Assembly (NCBI GenBank): GCA_964645515.1
Contig: CAZYBD010000010.1
Location: 1-26,856, forward strand
DNA: 26,856 nt
From: an uncultured Dehalococcoidia bacterium
Lineage (GTDB): Bacteria > Chloroflexota > Dehalococcoidia > Lucifugimonadales > UBA3495
Reading direction: 5' to 3'
This document shows, piece by piece, positions 6,347-21,812 of this stretch; the first letter of the stretch is position 1; each line of letters starts with the position of its first letter. A program made the position numbers and the translations under genes. Below the pieces are notes generated by a model. It saw nothing but the letters and a program-made list of their open reading frames with translations. It did no database searches and was not told the DNA's origin.

Positions 6347-6712
6347 TTGACTGTATTAGGCTGTCATCTATTGCTGGAATTAAAGGACTGTAACCCGGCA
6401 CTGCTCAACGATCTGAACTTCATACGTCGGGCGATGCTGACGACCGCTCAAGACGTAGGCGCCACAGTCGTCGGCGAGTCTTTCCACCACTTCACTCCAC
6501 AGGGTGTCACCGGTATTCTTGCCATCGCGGAATCTCACATTTCGATACACACTTGGCCGGAGTATGGGTATGCTGCGGCTGATATCTTTTCTTGTGGCTC
6601 ATCGTTCCGCCCTTGGGAGGCGGCCAAAAGGCTGGCAGACCTGCTAGAGTCTAAGGATGCGGACTTCAAGGAAGTCGAGCGGGGGTTCCTTACCGAGGCA
6701 GTAGTCAACTAA
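6347..6712 (+). CDS. speD: S-adenosylmethionine decarboxylase proenzyme (short class 1b)
   Basis: LGCHLLLELKDC, FTPQGVTG, self-cleavage motif AESHISIHTWPEYGYAAADIFSCG. SD GAGGAGG is 8 nt before the TTG. Confidence 0.95.
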   Translation: MTVLGCHLLLELKDCNPALLNDLNFIRRAMLTTAQDVGATVVGESFHHFTPQGVTGILAIAESHISIHTWPEYGYAAADIFSCGSSFRPWEAAKRLADLLESKDADFKEVERGFLTEAVVN

Positions 6713-6715
6713 ATC

Positions 6716-7627
6716 ATGGAATTGACAGGTAAATGGTTTGTTGAAAGCGTCTTTCCGGACCTGGCCATCATGCTCCGGGTCCAAAAAGTTTTTTACTCTG
6801 GGGAGACTGACTACCAGAAAGTGGAAGTCTTAGAGTCAGACGTCTTTGGCCGTAGCCTGGTCCTAGACGGTAAGACTCAGTCCACTGAGAAGGACGAGTT
6901 CGTTTACCACGAATCTTTGGTGCATCCTGCCATGCTCTGCCATCCGTGCCCGAAGAGCGTTTTCATCGGCGGCGGGGGAGAAGGGGGCACATTGCGCGAG
7001 GTCTTGGCGCACAACACGGTGGAAAAAGTGACCATGTTGGATCTGGACCAAGAGGTGGTAGAACTGTGCCGTCGCTATTTACCGAACCATCACCGAGGCA
7101 GCTTTGACGACCCTAGGACCAGCTTGCTGCACCGAGATGCTAGGGCATTTTTGGAGGACCCTGGTGACGGTTTCGATGTTATTATTCTCGATCTGGTCGA
7201 CCCTCTTGAGGGGGGGACGGCCTATCTGTTGTATACCGACGAATTCTACCGGATTGCCAAAAACAGGCTGAACCCCGGCGGCGTCCTTGTTACTCAGTCG
7301 GGACCGGCCGGTCTGCTTAGCTTCGACGAGTGCTTCACTACAATCTTTAACACGCTGAGGAACGTCTTTGCCCACACCGCGGCCGCGCAAGTTCATGTGC
7401 CAGCGTTCGAAACTCTCTGGGGATTCACACTCGCCTCCGATTCTCCACTATTGCAGATATCGGACGAGAGCATAGATCAACTGCTTTCCATCCGTGTCAA
7501 AAACGACCTAAATCATTACGATGCCGAGACTCATCGCGGTATGTTTGCATTGCCCAAGCATTTGCGAAACGGTCTCAAGTCCGAGACTCGCATAAACCGC
7601 GACGCCACTCCCGTCTTCATGGCCTGA
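6716..7627 (+). CDS. speE: Polyamine aminopropyltransferase (spermidine/thermospermine synthase family)
   Basis: YQKVEVLES, LVLDGKTQSTEKDEFVYHESLVHPAM, GGGEGGTLREVL, DLVDP, LNPGGVLVTQSG. Starts 3 nt after the speD stop. Confidence 0.95.
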   Translation: MELTGKWFVESVFPDLAIMLRVQKVFYSGETDYQKVEVLESDVFGRSLVLDGKTQSTEKDEFVYHESLVHPAMLCHPCPKSVFIGGGGEGGTLREVLAHNTVEKVTMLDLDQEVVELCRRYLPNHHRGSFDDPRTSLLHRDARAFLEDPGDGFDVIILDLVDPLEGGTAYLLYTDEFYRIAKNRLNPGGVLVTQSGPAGLLSFDECFTTIFNTLRNVFAHTAAAQVHVPAFETLWGFTLASDSPLLQISDESIDQLLSIRVKNDLNHYDAETHRGMFALPKHLRNGLKSETRINRDATPVFMA

Positions 7628-8212
7628 CCGACCTGTCTGCTCCCTCTACGCTGTTCACAGCCTTAACATGCCGCGCCGTCAAGTATCCGTGCTACTTCGC
7701 CCTAGTTTCGATTGAGCGGAAGAATATTGGCCCTCAGGCCGAATGTATCTCCAAGCAGTTCCAGTGGGCGATTGAGGTGCGGTCGGGAGATTTTGAGATC
7801 CGCGATCTTTCCCGCCGCAGCTACGATCAGAGTTGTGGCTAACGCAGAGTCGAGAAAATGCCAACTCATCGCCTCGGAACCGGTGGAACCTACTAGCCAG
7901 AGAACAGTCCAGATGGTGATGGTCAAGGGTTGTTAATCTTGCAGCGGGACCATGAATAGGACCGTTCTAGCCGATGACTCTATTTCCGGTTATTCCGACT
8001 TGGCAAGCTGAGGCAGGATGATTCGAACATGCTTTAGCGGGGCCCGAAATAGAGGAAGGTCACCAAGCGATAATAAACAGCTCCAAGTACGAAGCGTGTT
8101 CATTTCGCCCGTCGAGGTGTCGTTCCGGACTCTATCCAGCCAAACCCCTAAACCCCTCTACCGCGGCGTATCGAGAAACAACATGTCTACAATTGCTGGT
8201 TAACGCCGGTCC

Positions 8213-10231
8213 CTACGGCTGTAGCAGCACCCGGACGGTGCCGTCCACGTCTTTACGCTGGGTCAGCAGCTTGTGGCCTGCCTGCTCCGACCAGCCGATG
8301 ACGTCGTATATGTTCAGGGCGTCGGCAAGGATGGCTTCCACGAACGACTGGTTGTCAAGTTCCATCTGACGGGATAGAGCAGCGATTACCCCGGCGCAAC
8401 TCTTGCCGCGCCCGTCGATGATGATCCAGCCGCCGGTACCGTTGTTGACGACCGGTGCAACATCGTCGTGGACGCTGACCTCACCGCTCTTGCGCAGGTC
8501 CAACTGGCGCTTGAACTCCGCCACGGCTTCCCAGGCCACCGCCCGACCGCGGTCACCCGAAGAGCATACGGCGCCGCGCACTCCAACGATGTCGGGGTTG
8601 ATGCGTTCCAGTTCATCCAAGTCATCTATCTTCAGGTGACCGGACAGTGCCGTGCTCATGCCCAACTGTTTACCCTGCAAGATGATGTCCCGTAGCACCG
8701 GCTCGGGCATGAAGTCAAACAAGTTGCGGCCGTCTTTAGTCAAGGTATCTATCAGGAAACCGTCGCATTCACCGTCCTTGGCAAGCTGCACCATGCAATG
8801 GGGGTCCAGTCCGTCCTCGTATAGCTCGTTGTCGGCGAACACTGAGCCGATTAGCTTGGTGTTGAAGCCCTCCAACGCCCTCCGCGACTCGCGCAGCACG
8901 GCCACTGCGTCGTCGTACGAGCCACGCTGGAAGCCGACCTTGACCGACGTTGCGTCCAATTGGGCAGCGGCGTAGGCCGCCATGGCTACGGTGCCGGCCT
9001 GGTTAGGCACAACACCCAAGGTTACGCTGACGTGCTTTTCCACCGGGATGGTGCCCCGCACCTGCCGTACCGTGGAAGGATGTCCTGAACCCACCAGGGC
9101 CTCTTGGAGGTTTTTGACATCGACTACGTCGGCCCCGCCCTGTTCGGCCTCTAGCGCCTCTTCTAAGTTTTGGACGCTGACCATCAGCAACATGCCCGAC
9201 GCGAAGTTATTGTTACCGTCTAGCCAGGATGTCCGGGAAGCCGTGGGGGCGGCCGGCGCTGGAACCCGCGGCTTAAGTGGTTCCAACTCCTCGCGGAGTT
9301 CTGACTTTTCCACCGGAGAGAGGTCGGCTAACGGCAGTCGTGTTGGGCCGGCTGCCATGCCCATCAACTCGGCCCAATGCTTGACCAGCGGCACTGGAAG
9401 CGCCCCGTTGTACTTGGTGACCGTGCGGGTCCACCAGGTGTCTGACAACTCTTTCAAGCGCCGCAGGTGGGTCTCGTAGAATTGTTCGTCCAAGTCGCCT
9501 TTGGTGGCTCGGTCTATGAACTGGACGTAGTTATTGGCGCCAGGTATGTCGAAACGCCAATCCGAGGTATTGGCAAACATTACCTGCTGTTGTATGCCCA
9601 GCTCCTGAGCTTTGAAGAAGATCCACTCGTCGGGGGTGCTGATGACCGCCTCTTTCCCCAAGGTCAGGTGGGCTTCGATTGACAGTTGCTGGTTAAAGCT
9701 GGCCTCCTTGACTCCCACTACGTTGGGTATGCGGCAAAGGCGTTGCATCCCGTAGGTGCTCATTACTATTCCGAACTGTGGAGAGTTGTAGAACATAATG
9801 GCCAGATCGGTGTTAGCGGCTAATAGCCGAACGTATTCGACCACCTGGTCCTCGGTCTTGGCAACCATGTAGGGCGGGGCCACGATGAGCAGGTCGAACC
9901 CTTTGCCTTGGGCGTGCTGAGCTAACGATAGCATCTCGGAGGCGGAGGTGTCGGTAACATGGGCGCCGATAGGCCAGCTACCTGCGGCCTCCTCGGCCAC
10001 CGTGTCCATCACCTGGATCCTTTCTGCGTGGGTCAGGCTCCAGAACTCACCCATTCCCCAGGTGCAACCGCCCCCGGTGCTCCCCAGGCTTCGCACATGC
10101 CTTATATTGCGTTTGACCCCCTCCTGGTCGATGCGGTCGTCGGGTGTGAACGGGGTAATTAACGTAGTCCATTGGCCCTTGAGAGTTTCCCAAGCCCACT
10201 CCTGGGCCTCGTGCTTCTTGTAATCAGTCAT
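8213..10231 (-). CDS. Tri-domain fusion: DapA/DHDPS-family aldolase (aa ~1-320) + MfnB-like 4-HFC-P synthase (aa ~347-578) + TusA/SirA-like domain (aa ~602-672)
   Basis: DapA fold: TTLITPFTPDDRID, GEFWSLTHAER, PPY, FYNSP, VVGVKEAS. MfnB: LLMVSVQNLEEALEAEQGGADVVDVKN, SVKVG, LIDTLTKDGRNLFDF, ALSGHL, PDIVGVRGAVCSSGDR. TusA-like: IDGRGKSC...DVIGWSEQAGHKLL. Continuous ORF with Pro/Ala linker and SD-like AGAGGG upstream. Confidence 0.88.
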   Translation of the reverse strand: MTDYKKHEAQEWAWETLKGQWTTLITPFTPDDRIDQEGVKRNIRHVRSLGSTGGGCTWGMGEFWSLTHAERIQVMDTVAEEAAGSWPIGAHVTDTSASEMLSLAQHAQGKGFDLLIVAPPYMVAKTEDQVVEYVRLLAANTDLAIMFYNSPQFGIVMSTYGMQRLCRIPNVVGVKEASFNQQLSIEAHLTLGKEAVISTPDEWIFFKAQELGIQQQVMFANTSDWRFDIPGANNYVQFIDRATKGDLDEQFYETHLRRLKELSDTWWTRTVTKYNGALPVPLVKHWAELMGMAAGPTRLPLADLSPVEKSELREELEPLKPRVPAPAAPTASRTSWLDGNNNFASGMLLMVSVQNLEEALEAEQGGADVVDVKNLQEALVGSGHPSTVRQVRGTIPVEKHVSVTLGVVPNQAGTVAMAAYAAAQLDATSVKVGFQRGSYDDAVAVLRESRRALEGFNTKLIGSVFADNELYEDGLDPHCMVQLAKDGECDGFLIDTLTKDGRNLFDFMPEPVLRDIILQGKQLGMSTALSGHLKIDDLDELERINPDIVGVRGAVCSSGDRGRAVAWEAVAEFKRQLDLRKSGEVSVHDDVAPVVNNGTGGWIIIDGRGKSCAGVIAALSRQMELDNQSFVEAILADALNIYDVIGWSEQAGHKLLTQRKDVDGTVRVLLQP

Positions 10232-10276
10232 ATCCGCCGCCCTCTTTTCGAACTAAATGGTTGATTGCTGTATGGA

Positions 10277-12238
10277 TTACTCGTCGTCCTCGTACTGGCC
10301 TTTGAGGGAATCCACGACCGCCGGATCCGCTAGGGTCGTGGTATCGCCCAACGCACGCCCTTCCGCTACGTCTCGCAGGAGGCGCCGCATGATCTTGCCG
10401 CTACGGGTTTTGGGCAACTCGGCTGCAAAATAGATGTCGTCGGGCCTGGCCATGGGGCCGATCTTCCCGGCCACATGGGCCTTGAGCTCGGTTATCACCT
10501 CATCGGACATGGTGACTTGATCTTTTAGAGTGACGAAGGCCACTATGGCCTGTCCTTTGACTTCATGGTCTTTACCGATGCAAGCAGCCTCGGCCACTTT
10601 CAGGTTGTCTACTAACGCGCTCTCAACTTCCATGGTACCGATGCGGTGGCCCGAAACGTTGATCACGTCGTCCACCCTACCCAAGAGCCAGAAATAGCTT
10701 TCCTCGTCCAGCTTGGCTCCATCAGCGGTGAAATAAGTCCCTGGATAGCGGGACCAGTAGGTCTCCTTGAACCGTTCGGGGTCGCCGTAAATGTTGCGCA
10801 GCATCGACGGCCACGGCTTCTTGATGGTGAGGTAGCCTCCGCCTCCAGGTCCTACCGGATTACCGGCTTCGTCCAAGATTTCTGCGCTGATGCCCGGAAA
10901 AGCTTTGGTCGCCGAACCAGGTTTGAGAGTGGTGAGGCCCGGCAATGGCGCAATCATGATACTGCCCGTCTCAGTCTGCCACCAGGTGTCTACCACGGGA
11001 CAATTCCCCAGCCCGATGTTTTTCCAGTACCAGACCCAGGCTTCCGGGTTAATGGGCTCACCCACTGTCCCCAGCAGACGCAGAGAGGACAGGTCGTGTT
11101 TCTGAGGGTAGCCCTCTCCCCATCGCATGAAGGTGCGTATGGCGGTGGGAGCGGTATAAAGAATGGAAACGCCATACTTGGCGATGATGGCCCAAAACCG
11201 GTCTCTGTCCGGATAGTCGGGAGAGCCTTCGTACATTACAGAGGTCGTGCCGTTGGCCAACGGCCCGTAGACAATGTAGCTATGGCCTGTCACCCAGCCG
11301 ATGTCAGCGGTGCACCAATAAGTGTCTTCTTCTTTCAAGTCGATGATCCATTTGGTAGTGGCGTAAGTGCCCAACAAATAGCCGCCGGTAGTATGGACAA
11401 TGCCCTTGGGCTTACCGGTGGTGCCGCTGGTGTACAGGAGGTAGAGCATGTCCTCGCTGTCCATCTGCTCTGGCTCGCAGGTCTGGGGCTGACCCTCCAC
11501 TAGGTCGTGCCACCAGATGTCCCGGCCTTCGACCATGCTGTCGTCTGCGCTGCCGGTGCGTCGGAGAACCACCACGGTCTCGATGCTGTAGGTGCCGTCC
11601 AACGAATCGTCGGAGTTCTGCTTTAGCGGGACGATACCACCCCGGCGGTAGCCACCGTCGGCAGTTATCAAGATTTTGGACTGAGAGTCGTTAATCCGGT
11701 CCCTCAAGGACTCGGGGCTGAACCCACCGAACACGACGCTGTGGGGGGCACCAATACGGGCGCAAGCCAGCATGGCAATGGGTAACTCGGGGGTCATGGG
11801 CAGGTAGATAGTGACCCGGTCTCCCTTTTCCACTCCCTGACTTTTCAGGCCGTTAGCGAAGCGGCAGACCTCGCGGTAGAGGTCCCAATACGTGTAGACT
11901 TTCGAGTCGCCGGGCTCCCCTTCCCAGATTATGGCGGCCTTGTTTCGGCGGCTGGAAGTCAGGTGCCGGTCGAGGCAGTTGTAGGAGACGTTAAGCTTGC
12001 CTCCCACGAACCACTTGGCGAAAGGGGGATCCCACTCCAAGACCTTGTCCCATTTCTTAAACCAGTCCAGTTCCTCGGCAAACTTGGCCCAGAAGGCTTC
12101 TGGGTTCTCGGTTGCAGTCTCGTAGATCTTGGGATCGTTGACGTTGGCTTGTTTGACGAATTCGGTAGGAGGGGGGAATGTTCGGTCCTCTTGAAGCAGG
12201 GCGTCGATAGTTCCGGTGCTTCCCGAGTTTTCAACCAC
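10277..12238 (-). CDS. acs: Acetyl-CoA synthetase (AMP-forming)
   Basis: [53 protein letters not shown] and acetylation motif [19 protein letters not shown] is 8 nt before the GTG. Confidence 0.98.
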
Positions 12239-19841: not shown

Positions 19842-20816
19842 ATGCGCGCACGCAGTATACGGATTTCGGTCGGAATCGTTCTTATCCTTGGCGTCGCATT
19901 GGCGGCCCTCGGATTCAAGACCATAGATATTCCTGTGTTGGGGGAGCGTGACGGCAGTGGCCCCTTGGGCTTGAAGTTAGGTCTTGACCTGCGCGGAGGC
20001 GGCCACCTTGTCTATCAGGCTGACACCGGCACCCGTTTCGATCTGACCTTTGCGGAACCTGTCGACTTCAATGAGTTGTCCACGGCGCTAAACGATCTCA
20101 GATTCGGCGCCGATGATCTAGCGTTGGATGGGCTGCAGATCATACCCAGGGATTTGCGTTTAACTCAACCCGAAGAAATGTCGGCCGATGAAGACGCCGA
20201 GTCTCCAGCGGTACCGTCAGGCGAAGAAGGTCATACTGCCGGCTCGGCAGACAATGATGGCGGGGCGGATATTGAGACTACGGAGGCCGCGGTGGTTGCG
20301 GTGACGCCGGTCGTTACTCGTGTGCAGGTCAGGACCTCGCTCTTCAACGACGACGATCCGCGGCGCACTCAGCTGAGGAGCACGCTGACTGATCAGTTTG
20401 GTGAGGTCAGTCTGTTTCAGATCAACGACATTGGAGAGCCCACCAGAGACCAGATGGAAGGGGTTCTCGACAACATTACTCGGCGGGTCAATCGGTTCGG
20501 CACGGAAGAGCCGATTATCCAGATCTTTGGCGACGACCGGATCATCGTTCAGTTGCCCGGAGCCAGCGGATCGGTCTCGGAGATCCGGTTCGTCGAGCCC
20601 GTAACCGAGAGCGAAGATTTGGCGGCGCTGCCGCTCCTGTTAGAAAGCGCCGGCTTTGAAGACTTCGTTATCGACGGAAGTAGCGACCAACGGACTTTCA
20701 GAGTGACATCGGACACTATTGGCAGAGCTGCCCAAAACGCGGCGTTGAATTCTTTGACAGACCAGATCGGTTCCATCGAGTCGTTCGAGGTTACCAGCGG
20801 TATTGACGAGGCCTAA
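19842..20816 (+). CDS. secD: SecD N-terminal part (TM1 + expanded periplasmic region), ending at an in-frame TAA
   Basis: Hydrophobic TM1, LKLGLDLRGGGHLVYQAD and ITRRVNRFGTEEPIIQIFGDDRIIVQLPG. In frame with the next ORF, separated only by TAA-GAC. Confidence 0.85.
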   Translation: MRARSIRISVGIVLILGVALAALGFKTIDIPVLGERDGSGPLGLKLGLDLRGGGHLVYQADTGTRFDLTFAEPVDFNELSTALNDLRFGADDLALDGLQIIPRDLRLTQPEEMSADEDAESPAVPSGEEGHTAGSADNDGGADIETTEAAVVAVTPVVTRVQVRTSLFNDDDPRRTQLRSTLTDQFGEVSLFQINDIGEPTRDQMEGVLDNITRRVNRFGTEEPIIQIFGDDRIIVQLPGASGSVSEIRFVEPVTESEDLAALPLLLESAGFEDFVIDGSSDQRTFRVTSDTIGRAAQNAALNSLTDQIGSIESFEVTSGIDEA

Positions 20817-20819
20817 GAC

Positions 20820-21812
20820 TTGATCGGCCAGACTGCTAGTTTGGAGTTTAAAGAGCGAACCTGCCAGACAGAACTGTGTATGAATTTCACCGACACCGAC
20901 CTAGACCTGAGCGGAGATGACCTCTCACGCGCCGAAGCAGGCACGGACCCGGTGGGTGTCGGCTGGGTTGTCAACATAGAGTTCAGGGGTCGAGGCACCG
21001 ATATATTCTCGGACATGACCCGGCGCATCCAAGGCGTGGAGACCAAGCGTATAGCGGTGTTCATGGACGACGAAGAACTCGTCGCACCCGTTGCTCGCGC
21101 CTGGATACGTGACGGACGAACCCAGGTCAGCGGTAACTTCACCAGAGACGAGGCCCAGACCTTGGCCATCCAGTTGGAGTCCGGGCGTCTGCCGGTGCCG
21201 CTCAAACTGATCCAAGAAAGTGACGTAGACGCCTTGTTGGGTTCCGAGTCTCTGAGAAACAGCTTGCTGGCGGGGCTGGTGGGTCTGGGTCTTGTGTTAG
21301 TGTTCATGGTGGTCTACTACCGGATGGCGGGAGTGGTGGCTGGGGCCGCGTTGGTGTTCTATGCTGTCGTGGCCTTGTCTATATTCAAGCTTCTTCCCAT
21401 TACGCTGGAACTGGCCCATATTGGTGGGTTCATCCTGTCCGTAGGCATGGCAGTGGACGCCAACGTATTGATCTTCGAGCGCATGAAAGAAGAGGTTCGT
21501 GTCGGCCGCACCTTGGCGTCATCCATGGAAGTAGGCTTTGGCCGTGCTTGGCCAGCCATCAGAGATAGTAACTTTTCCACGATTATCACTTGTCTGGTGC
21601 TTCTGTGGTTCGGTGACCGCCTGGGTGGCGGACTGGTCACCGGGGTAGCCATTAGCTTGTTGATAGGCGTATTGGTCAGCATGTTCACTGCGGTGGTTGT
21701 CAGCAGGAACCTATTGCAATTACTGGCCTTCGTAGGACTAGGCCATCGGATTAACCTGTTCACTCCTGAACCAGTCCAGCGGGCAGTTGAAAATACCGGG
21801 GGTGCCAGATAG
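20820..21812 (+). CDS. secD: SecD C-terminal part (P1 head/base + TM2-6)
   Basis: LIGQTASLEF, IQLESGRLPVPL, LGSESLRNSLLAG, IGGFILSVGMAVDANVLIFERMKEE, GFGRAWPAIRDSN. The stop overlaps the secF start (TAGTG). Confidence 0.9.
   Translation: MIGQTASLEFKERTCQTELCMNFTDTDLDLSGDDLSRAEAGTDPVGVGWVVNIEFRGRGTDIFSDMTRRIQGVETKRIAVFMDDEELVAPVARAWIRDGRTQVSGNFTRDEAQTLAIQLESGRLPVPLKLIQESDVDALLGSESLRNSLLAGLVGLGLVLVFMVVYYRMAGVVAGAALVFYAVVALSIFKLLPITLELAHIGGFILSVGMAVDANVLIFERMKEEVRVGRTLASSMEVGFGRAWPAIRDSNFSTIITCLVLLWFGDRLGGGLVTGVAISLLIGVLVSMFTAVVVSRNLLQLLAFVGLGHRINLFTPEPVQRAVENTGGAR

Follow-up and report, generated by a model that had tools for sequence, protein, structure and literature searches.

What does a bacterium make with a single polypeptide in which an aldolase-like barrel, a barrel related to a furan synthase and a domain resembling a sulfur carrier follow one another? 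The question is raised by a gene in a stretch of 26,856 nucleotides (contig CAZYBD010000010.1 of assembly GCA_964645515.1, positions 1 to 26,856; this whole stretch is referred to here as the window) from an uncultured Dehalococcoidia bacterium. The gene, a fusion of DHDPS-like, MfnB-like and TusA-like parts recognized from its open reading frame (ORF), translation, Pfam matches and homologues, lies at 8213..10231 on the minus strand, ends with a stop codon at 8213-8215 and encodes 672 amino acids. We refer to the three parts, whether they are fused or encoded by adjacent genes, as the module. Comparison of genomes points to a role in the synthesis of a menaquinone-type quinone rather than in that of a free-standing furan cofactor: the module was detected in 183 of 301 genomes sampled within the order, and a known early route to menaquinone in none of these 183. 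The explanation that we tentatively prefer, and to which we would give a chance not far below even, is that the module supplies the precursor of the quinone ring through an undescribed triose-phosphate/furan route and replaces the early steps of menaquinone synthesis.

SAR202 bacteria, to which this ocean bacterium belongs, rank among the most abundant in the dark ocean, and most of the sampled genomes of the order possess late menaquinone enzymes and no known route for making the ring. If the proposed role is correct, the module would represent a new pathway to compounds of the vitamin K2 type and would bring the furan chemistry of MfnB into use outside the synthesis of methanogen cofactors. 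Automatic annotations, which currently label the gene "dihydrodipicolinate synthase" or "(5-formylfuran-3-yl)methyl phosphate synthase", would need to be corrected, and the predictions of respiratory capacity and quinone biomarkers that are drawn from marine metagenomes would change. Should the link to quinones fail, the module would still stand out as an enzyme system of very wide distribution and strong conservation. The original prediction, which was made from the sequence of the window, had supposed the architecture to be undescribed, and a literature search indeed found no paper describing a DHDPS-like/MfnB-like/TusA-like architecture or a quinone route of this kind.

Three Domains in One Protein

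The ORF at 8213..10231 is a single unbroken reading frame of 672 codons for amino acids, within which Pfam placed DHDPS at residues 18-317, 4HFCP_synth at residues 349-573 and, below threshold, TusA at residues 604-671. That three modules and a Pro/Ala linker are joined in one ORF had been claimed at the outset and is borne out by these matches, by the predicted model and by the comparison of folds. The Pro/Ala-rich interdomain linker (residues 318-346; 9194..9280, minus strand) has low scores in the predicted local distance difference test (pLDDT), which fall below 50 at residues 325-345, and its length varies among the homologues, whose ORFs range from 671 to 740 amino acids.

The first domain (residues 18-317; 9281..10180, minus strand) resembles the class I aldolases of the DHDPS/N-acetylneuraminate lyase (NAL) superfamily, which includes DapA, NanA, KdgD and enzymes of the NahE type. 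It matches PF00701 with an E-value of 2.5e-32, and Foldseek aligned it to chains of the DHDPS family with template modeling (TM) scores of ~0.85. With this superfamily it shares the fold, the lysine in the motif GVKEAS and the tyrosine of YN.P; in an alignment to the DapA structure 3si9 from the PDB, Lys175 (codon 9707-9709) and Tyr148 occupy the positions of the Schiff-base Lys161 and of Tyr133 of DapA (E. coli numbering). The domain differs from the superfamily in that the residues specific to DapA are exchanged for Gly, Met and Phe, with G59, M122 and F153 at the positions of Thr44, Tyr107 and Arg138 (the last of which binds aspartate semialdehyde), and in that it reaches the cut-off of no named subfamily. 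All of the NCBIfam models of the DHDPS type scored far below their cut-offs, as illustrated by the 83 bits obtained versus the 206 required for TIGR00674. The term "DapA-like aldolase" used in the original prediction is therefore apt for the fold, the Schiff-base lysine and Tyr148, but not for the three residues that are specific to DapA.

Stand-alone DHDPS-like relatives of this domain are 31-42% identical to it (38-42% for the nearest); their surroundings are those of catabolic or transporter genes and do not include MfnB. One paralogue of this sort, which is 38% identical to the N-terminal domain and is located on metagenome contig ORJL010259104.1, stands in a row with genes for two solute-binding proteins, two genes without a known family and a gene for a UbiD-family decarboxylase.

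The second domain (residues 347-577; 8501..9193, minus strand) is a TIM barrel of the MfnB family, the synthase of 4-(hydroxymethyl)-2-furancarboxaldehyde phosphate (4-HFC-P). Here the match to PF04476 extends over profile positions 1-227 of 228 (E 1.8e-53; 182 bits versus a cut-off of 22.4), and the domain aligns with PDB entry 4rc1, the MfnB protein MJ1099, at an E-value of 2.8e-39 and ~36% identity; the model and 4rc1 agree with a TM score of 0.9. Residues D371, K373 (codon 9113-9115), K431 and D495 are aligned to the catalytic residues D25, K27, K85 and D151 of MJ1099 and are invariant in 31 homologues; K499 is likewise conserved. The full-length profile match and these aligned residues sustain the initial view of an MfnB-like domain. 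In comparison with MfnB (MJ1099; PDB 4RC1/4U9P; PF04476), the TIM barrel, the Asp/Lys/Lys/Asp set and the motif GVRGAxC are kept, whereas the fusion carries TusA-like and DHDPS-like parts in addition and scores 178 and 171 bits with the NCBIfam MfnB equivalog models, that is, about half of their cut-offs of 341 and 304.

The third domain (residues 602-672; 8216..8428, minus strand) is assigned to the TusA/SirA type by PF01206, by its topology and by comparison of structures. Whereas profiles for the first two of the three expected families (DHDPS, 4HFCP_synth and TusA) were matched by Pfam, the TusA match of the protein itself was weak, with 17.6 bits versus a gathering cut-off of 28.6 and another score of 21.8 bits, and the assignment was made firm by divergent members and by structure. 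PF01206 was matched over its full length by 16 of 16 divergent members (E<=0.1), and the model has the topology beta-alpha-beta-alpha-beta-beta according to DSSP. When the PDB was searched with a profile of this domain, no TusA emerged, and the Foldseek E-values were weak as well; the fold was settled only by an exhaustive structural alignment against 48,161 PDB chains, in which the top three were all of the TusA/SirA family, with Z-scores of 10.0 (3hz7, SirA-like), 9.2 (8j4c, TsuB) and 8.5 (3lvj, E. coli TusA). On all of these grounds the TusA-like domain of the original prediction can be accepted.

The features held in common with the TusA/SirA/YeeD (TsuB) family (PF01206; 3LVJ, 3HZ7, 8J4C) are the fold, a cysteine at the N-terminus of helix 1 and the D-x5-C spacing. 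The cysteine is Cys612 (codon 8396-8398), with which helix 1 starts, and it is invariant in sets of 31 and of 16 sequences as part of the motif DG(R/T)GKxCAG. The domain departs from the family in its Pfam score, which is below the gathering cut-off, and in the absence of the classical CPxP motif, in whose place it has C-A-G. No gene for a desulfurase or for a partner in sulfur relay was noticed near the module.

Fusion and Fission of the Module

Do the three parts belong together? One might suppose that the domains are independent of each other and that their fusion is functionally meaningless or an artefact of assembly, and the uncertain placement of the domains relative to one another in the predicted model (predicted TM score, pTM, of 0.51) would agree with such a view. 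We consider it very unlikely in light of what is found in relatives. A single frame runs from the DHDPS-like into the MfnB-like part in 79 of 79 of the nearest GTDB species (Dehalococcoidia/SAR202 metagenome-assembled genomes, or MAGs; the 80 nearest were inspected), and the fusion is carried by 34 of the 36 genomes of the genus. A protein database yielded 504 homologues, of which the best 120 are full-length and 75-92% identical; a few bear the names of SAR202 or Chloroflexi MAGs. Clustering of the family at 50% gave one fused cluster, one cluster of N-terminal parts and one of C-terminal parts.

Relatives of the module were detected in 558 species genomes by a pattern search. The fusion is characteristic of the bacterium's own family and of the genomes G344 and G355, whereas in most other families of the order the module is split into two adjacent genes that encode a DHDPS-like protein of ~325 amino acids followed by an MfnB-TusA protein of ~330 amino acids; such a split is seen in at least 10 families, the order is constant and the MfnB and TusA parts are always fused. 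The architecture looked for in relatives was found, then, in the genus, in the nearest species and, in its split form, in sister families. In the split versions an intergenic gap takes the place of the linker, and the second gene begins with M(L/I)LMVSVQN, which corresponds to Met347 of the fusion. This correspondence, the 79 species with the intact frame and the full-length homologues rule out a misassembly or a lost stop codon and establish that the fusion is real. Counting fused and adjacent forms, the three parts occur together in at least 20 families and in the 183 genomes of the order sample mentioned above. Because fusion and fission of the genes keep the parts either fused or adjacent, we conclude that they work together and are functionally coupled. 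Other genes are conserved as neighbors across the split-gene loci (RecG, Trk, FakA/DegV, prephenate dehydratase and aconitase); they reflect synteny and not a pathway.

Known Pathways Considered for the Module

Our surveys made use of two separate samples of 301 genomes, one taken across the phylum and searched for PF04476, the other taken within the order and searched for the module, MenD and Mqn genes. If the MfnB-like domain were an ordinary MfnB that serves methanofuran or methylofuran synthesis and became fused to its neighbors by chance, one could readily account for its full-length PF04476 match and for its closest stand-alone relative (46% identity), an MfnB encoded next to genes of the MfnA-like (Pyridoxal_deC) and GHMP-kinase types, a context that fits methanofuran synthesis. 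Such an origin of the module is scarcely credible in view of its equivalog scores, of the presence of PF04476 in 2 of the 301 genomes sampled across the phylum and of the search of the bacterium's own genome, which is 87% complete and in which Ftr, Mch and MfnF were not found; on the last of these observations a role in the methanofuran pathway was rejected. The copy of PF04476 under study is the only one in that genome. The module also differs from MfnB in its genomic partners, which are late menaquinone genes, while the rest of the methanofuran/tetrahydromethanopterin (H4MPT) pathway was not found in the bacterium's own genome.

Three further assignments were considered and rejected. The module is not a substitute for the synthesis of thiazole, for the entry into the shikimate pathway or for the synthesis of pyridoxal phosphate (PLP), because ThiG, DAHP synthase and the PLP synthase PdxS are all present in the bacterium's own genome, and ThiG recurs in each of the 36 genomes of the genus.

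Distribution of the Module and of Menaquinone Genes

Within the order, the same 301 genomes were used in each search and the resulting lists of genomes were compared by hand. The MfnB domain that marks the module has a pattern of occurrence that is largely family-wide. MenD exceeded its cut-off in 23 genomes and strong MqnA and MqnD matches were paired in 63; one or the other of these routes is represented in 86 of the 118 genomes without the module, as against 0 of the 183 with it. MqnE was over its cut-off only in the genomes with MqnA/MqnD. The late decarboxylase of the futalosine type, MqnL (TIGR03701), has a different distribution. It is present in 246 of the 301 genomes, which include ~177 of the 183 with the module (97%), ~62 of the 63 with the early Mqn genes and 0 of the 23 with MenD. 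The MqnL scores are similar in families with the module and in families with the futalosine genes (~610-650 bits in both), and because they are alike in both kinds of families they suggest that the substrate of MqnL may be similar as well. Families f81 and f98 have none of these genes, MqnL included.

Relative to the futalosine pathway (MqnA, MqnE, MqnB, MqnC and MqnD, then MqnP, MqnL, MqnM and MenG), the genomes with the module hold the late genes in common and differ in that MqnA, MqnD and MqnE were not found in them; the module has no homology to these proteins. In the bacterium's own genome the genes for UbiD (MqnL), UbiA (closest to MqnP), UbiX and UbiE/MenG stand in a row that extends across two contig ends, and MenD, UbiC, MqnE and MqnC were not found there. 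The sole match in that genome to MqnC or MqnE was rejected as CofH, encoded within a CofG-CofH-CofD-CofC cluster for F420. This F420 cluster appears to be complete and is followed by a gene for an F420-dependent LLM oxidoreductase (contig C86, L118:2410-7790). Every genome of the genus that was searched has one paralogue of ~250 amino acids that matches PF02621 (MqnA/MqnD family) weakly, and in the bacterium's own genome it directly precedes an MTHFR-like gene (contig C43, L025:6111-7726). With that neighbor and without any NCBIfam match, it was rejected as a representative of the futalosine gene set.

The order of the genes suggests a second connection to menaquinone in some families. In a panel searched with tblastn, the late operon contains the module in three families and in three arrangements: UbiD-UbiA-UbiX-fusion in G344, UbiD-UbiA-UbiX-fusion-MenG in G355 and DHDPS-like-MfnBTusA-UbiD-UbiA-UbiX in G538. 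A late cluster of the composition UbiD-UbiA-UbiX-MenG is also seen in family f73 (genome G340) and in the genomes G309, G323 and G385, which lack the module, MenD and MqnA/MqnD.

A tree of 26 genomes, built from PriA alone and with long branches in places, requires 5 changes in the state of the module, and its well-supported branches force at least 4, so that the genomes bearing the module are not one clade. The tree joins the bacterium's own family to a futalosine family as its sister, with a support of 98 in the Shimodaira-Hasegawa-like approximate likelihood ratio test (SH-aLRT). The tree provides 4 independent contrasts, in 2-3 of which a known early route stands opposite the module and in none of which the two occur together. 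A contrast at close range is found in family f92, where 15 genomes have the module and G508, which is without it, has MenD instead.

A Possible Route from Triose Phosphates

How might the module make a ring? In the scheme that we propose it would take the place of the first part of the futalosine pathway (MqnA, MqnE, MqnC and MqnD) or of the classical Men pathway, and its product would be passed on to a prenyltransferase resembling MqnP, to the decarboxylases MqnL and UbiX, which act as a pair, and to the methyltransferase MenG. The MfnB-like barrel, by means of Lys373 and Lys431, would first convert triose phosphates to a furan aldehyde phosphate, either 4-HFC-P or a close analogue. In chemical terms a furan is a masked 1,4-dicarbonyl. 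The DHDPS-like barrel would then form an enamine at Lys175 from a 2-oxo acid, for example pyruvate, and add it to the furan aldehyde, after which opening and re-closure of the ring might give a ring carboxylic acid oxygenated at positions 1 and 4, which could be 1,4-dihydroxy-6-naphthoate or a similar acid. Cys612 of the TusA-like domain might act as a covalent carrier or as a sulfur or redox handle. The original prediction is supported in part: its architecture, the retained catalytic residues and the coupling of the parts are borne out, and the condensation of the furan aldehyde with pyruvate, the channelling and the sulfur transfer that it put forward are conjectural.

A more specific version of this scheme, in which SAR202 bacteria would make the dioxygenated ring acid of their menaquinone-type quinone from triose phosphates by way of a furan, using the two Schiff-base barrels and the TusA-like cysteine domain, and would so possess a third, chorismate-independent route beside the Men and futalosine pathways, is one that we regard as plausible and hold with somewhat more reserve. 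There are parallels for the formation of an aromatic ring from C3/C4 metabolites by a class I aldolase and without entry through shikimate. GriI and GriH reportedly form a benzene ring from aspartate semialdehyde and dihydroxyacetone phosphate (DHAP), and the archaeal ADH synthase and DHQ synthase II are a comparable pair. These enzymes differ from the module in that they belong to unrelated families and have neither a furan-forming barrel nor a TusA-like domain.

Evidence For and Against a Role in Quinone Synthesis

The main rival to the menaquinone reading is that the module makes an unrelated small molecule or cofactor, perhaps one that is furan-based or contains sulfur, and that its association with quinone genes is a matter of shared ancestry and synteny. 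We consider this somewhat less likely than a role in quinone synthesis. The conserved catalytic residues of the MfnB type and the invariant Cys612 on a TusA fold would suit such a product, as would the neighbors of the module in the bacterium's own family, which are housekeeping genes and not pathway genes, and the existence of genomes that have late quinone genes and lack the module. Such a product would leave one to explain why the known early menaquinone routes are confined to genomes without the module, why MqnL accompanies the module almost throughout and why the module has been inserted into the late menaquinone operon three times independently, on one occasion between UbiX and MenG.

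A number of observations weigh against a role of the module in menaquinone synthesis. In the window and in close relatives the neighbors of the fusion are housekeeping genes only (acs, speDE, a gene for an MFS transporter, L19 and PriA), and in the bacterium's own family the late genes were found within 10 kb of the module in 0 of the 80 nearest species. In many families the module lies within 7-22 kb of the late genes, and its proximity at 7-20 kb largely comes down to one conserved synteny block. The MqnP-like protein of the bacterium's own genome is below the cut-off of every MqnP model. The PriA tree provides too small a number of independent contrasts for a sign test to reach significance. 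MqnL is found without the module and without a known early route in family f73 (5 of 5 genomes) and in G385, G309 and G323, of which G309 and G323 are single-contig genomes of the bacterium's own genus. The low confidence in the placement of the domains, noted above for the predicted model, also counts here. With regard to the chemistry, two trioses and pyruvate amount to C9, as compared with the C11 of 1,4-dihydroxy-6-naphthoate, so that one would have to assume additional units or a different ring; to our knowledge, moreover, the known chemistry of menaquinone calls for no domain that resembles a sulfur carrier. As for the genomes with MqnL alone, f73, G309, G323 and G385 may use another ring route or precursors obtained by cross-feeding; inspection of the surroundings of MqnL in family f73 brought no other early route to light.

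The TusA-like domain with its invariant cysteine also brings to mind the metabolism of organosulfur compounds or sulfite, and SAR202 bacteria are reported to metabolise organosulfur compounds. In an example of such a role, the MfnB-like barrel would eliminate phosphate from glyceraldehyde-3-phosphate, sulfite or sulfur bound to Cys612 would be added, and the DHDPS-like aldolase would join or split off pyruvate, as in the chemistry of sulfolactaldehyde or of the 2-keto-3-deoxy-6-sulfogluconate (KDSG) type. We judge this to be improbable: a comparison of 16 loci drawn from 15 families revealed no gene of sulfur metabolism conserved in the vicinity of the module, and the complementarity with MenD and MqnA/MqnD and the embedding in the late operon would be left without explanation.

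The Gene and Its Surroundings in the Window

The fusion gene begins with an ATG at 10231, which is preceded at a distance of 8 nucleotides by the Shine-Dalgarno-like sequence GAGGG (10240..10244, minus strand). Reading of the sequence found no Shine-Dalgarno-like element in front of Met347, as had been asserted before. The acetyl-CoA synthetase gene (acs; Pfam) is read in the same direction as the fusion and has its end at 10277. Besides the fusion, the genes of the window are of the housekeeping kind (glmS, aspartokinase, speD/speE, acs, an MFS transporter, tRNA-Val, L19, priA, def, secDF, S2 and EF-Ts), and the GC content is even along the window.

On the other side of the fusion gene, speD (AdoMet decarboxylase) and speE (spermidine synthase family) form a pair at 6347-7627 on the plus strand that is convergent with it; in one relative the pair and the fusion share a strand, which indicates a local inversion. 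The 585 nucleotides between speE and the fusion gene (7628-8212) contain no notable ORF and gave no Rfam or tRNA match. Farther along the window, secD (19842-21812, plus strand) consists of two ORFs, 19842-20816 and 20820-21812, which are separated by one in-frame stop codon at 20817-20819; the first encodes the N-terminal P1 domain of SecD, and the second encodes the P1 head and the SecD/SecF C-terminal domain.

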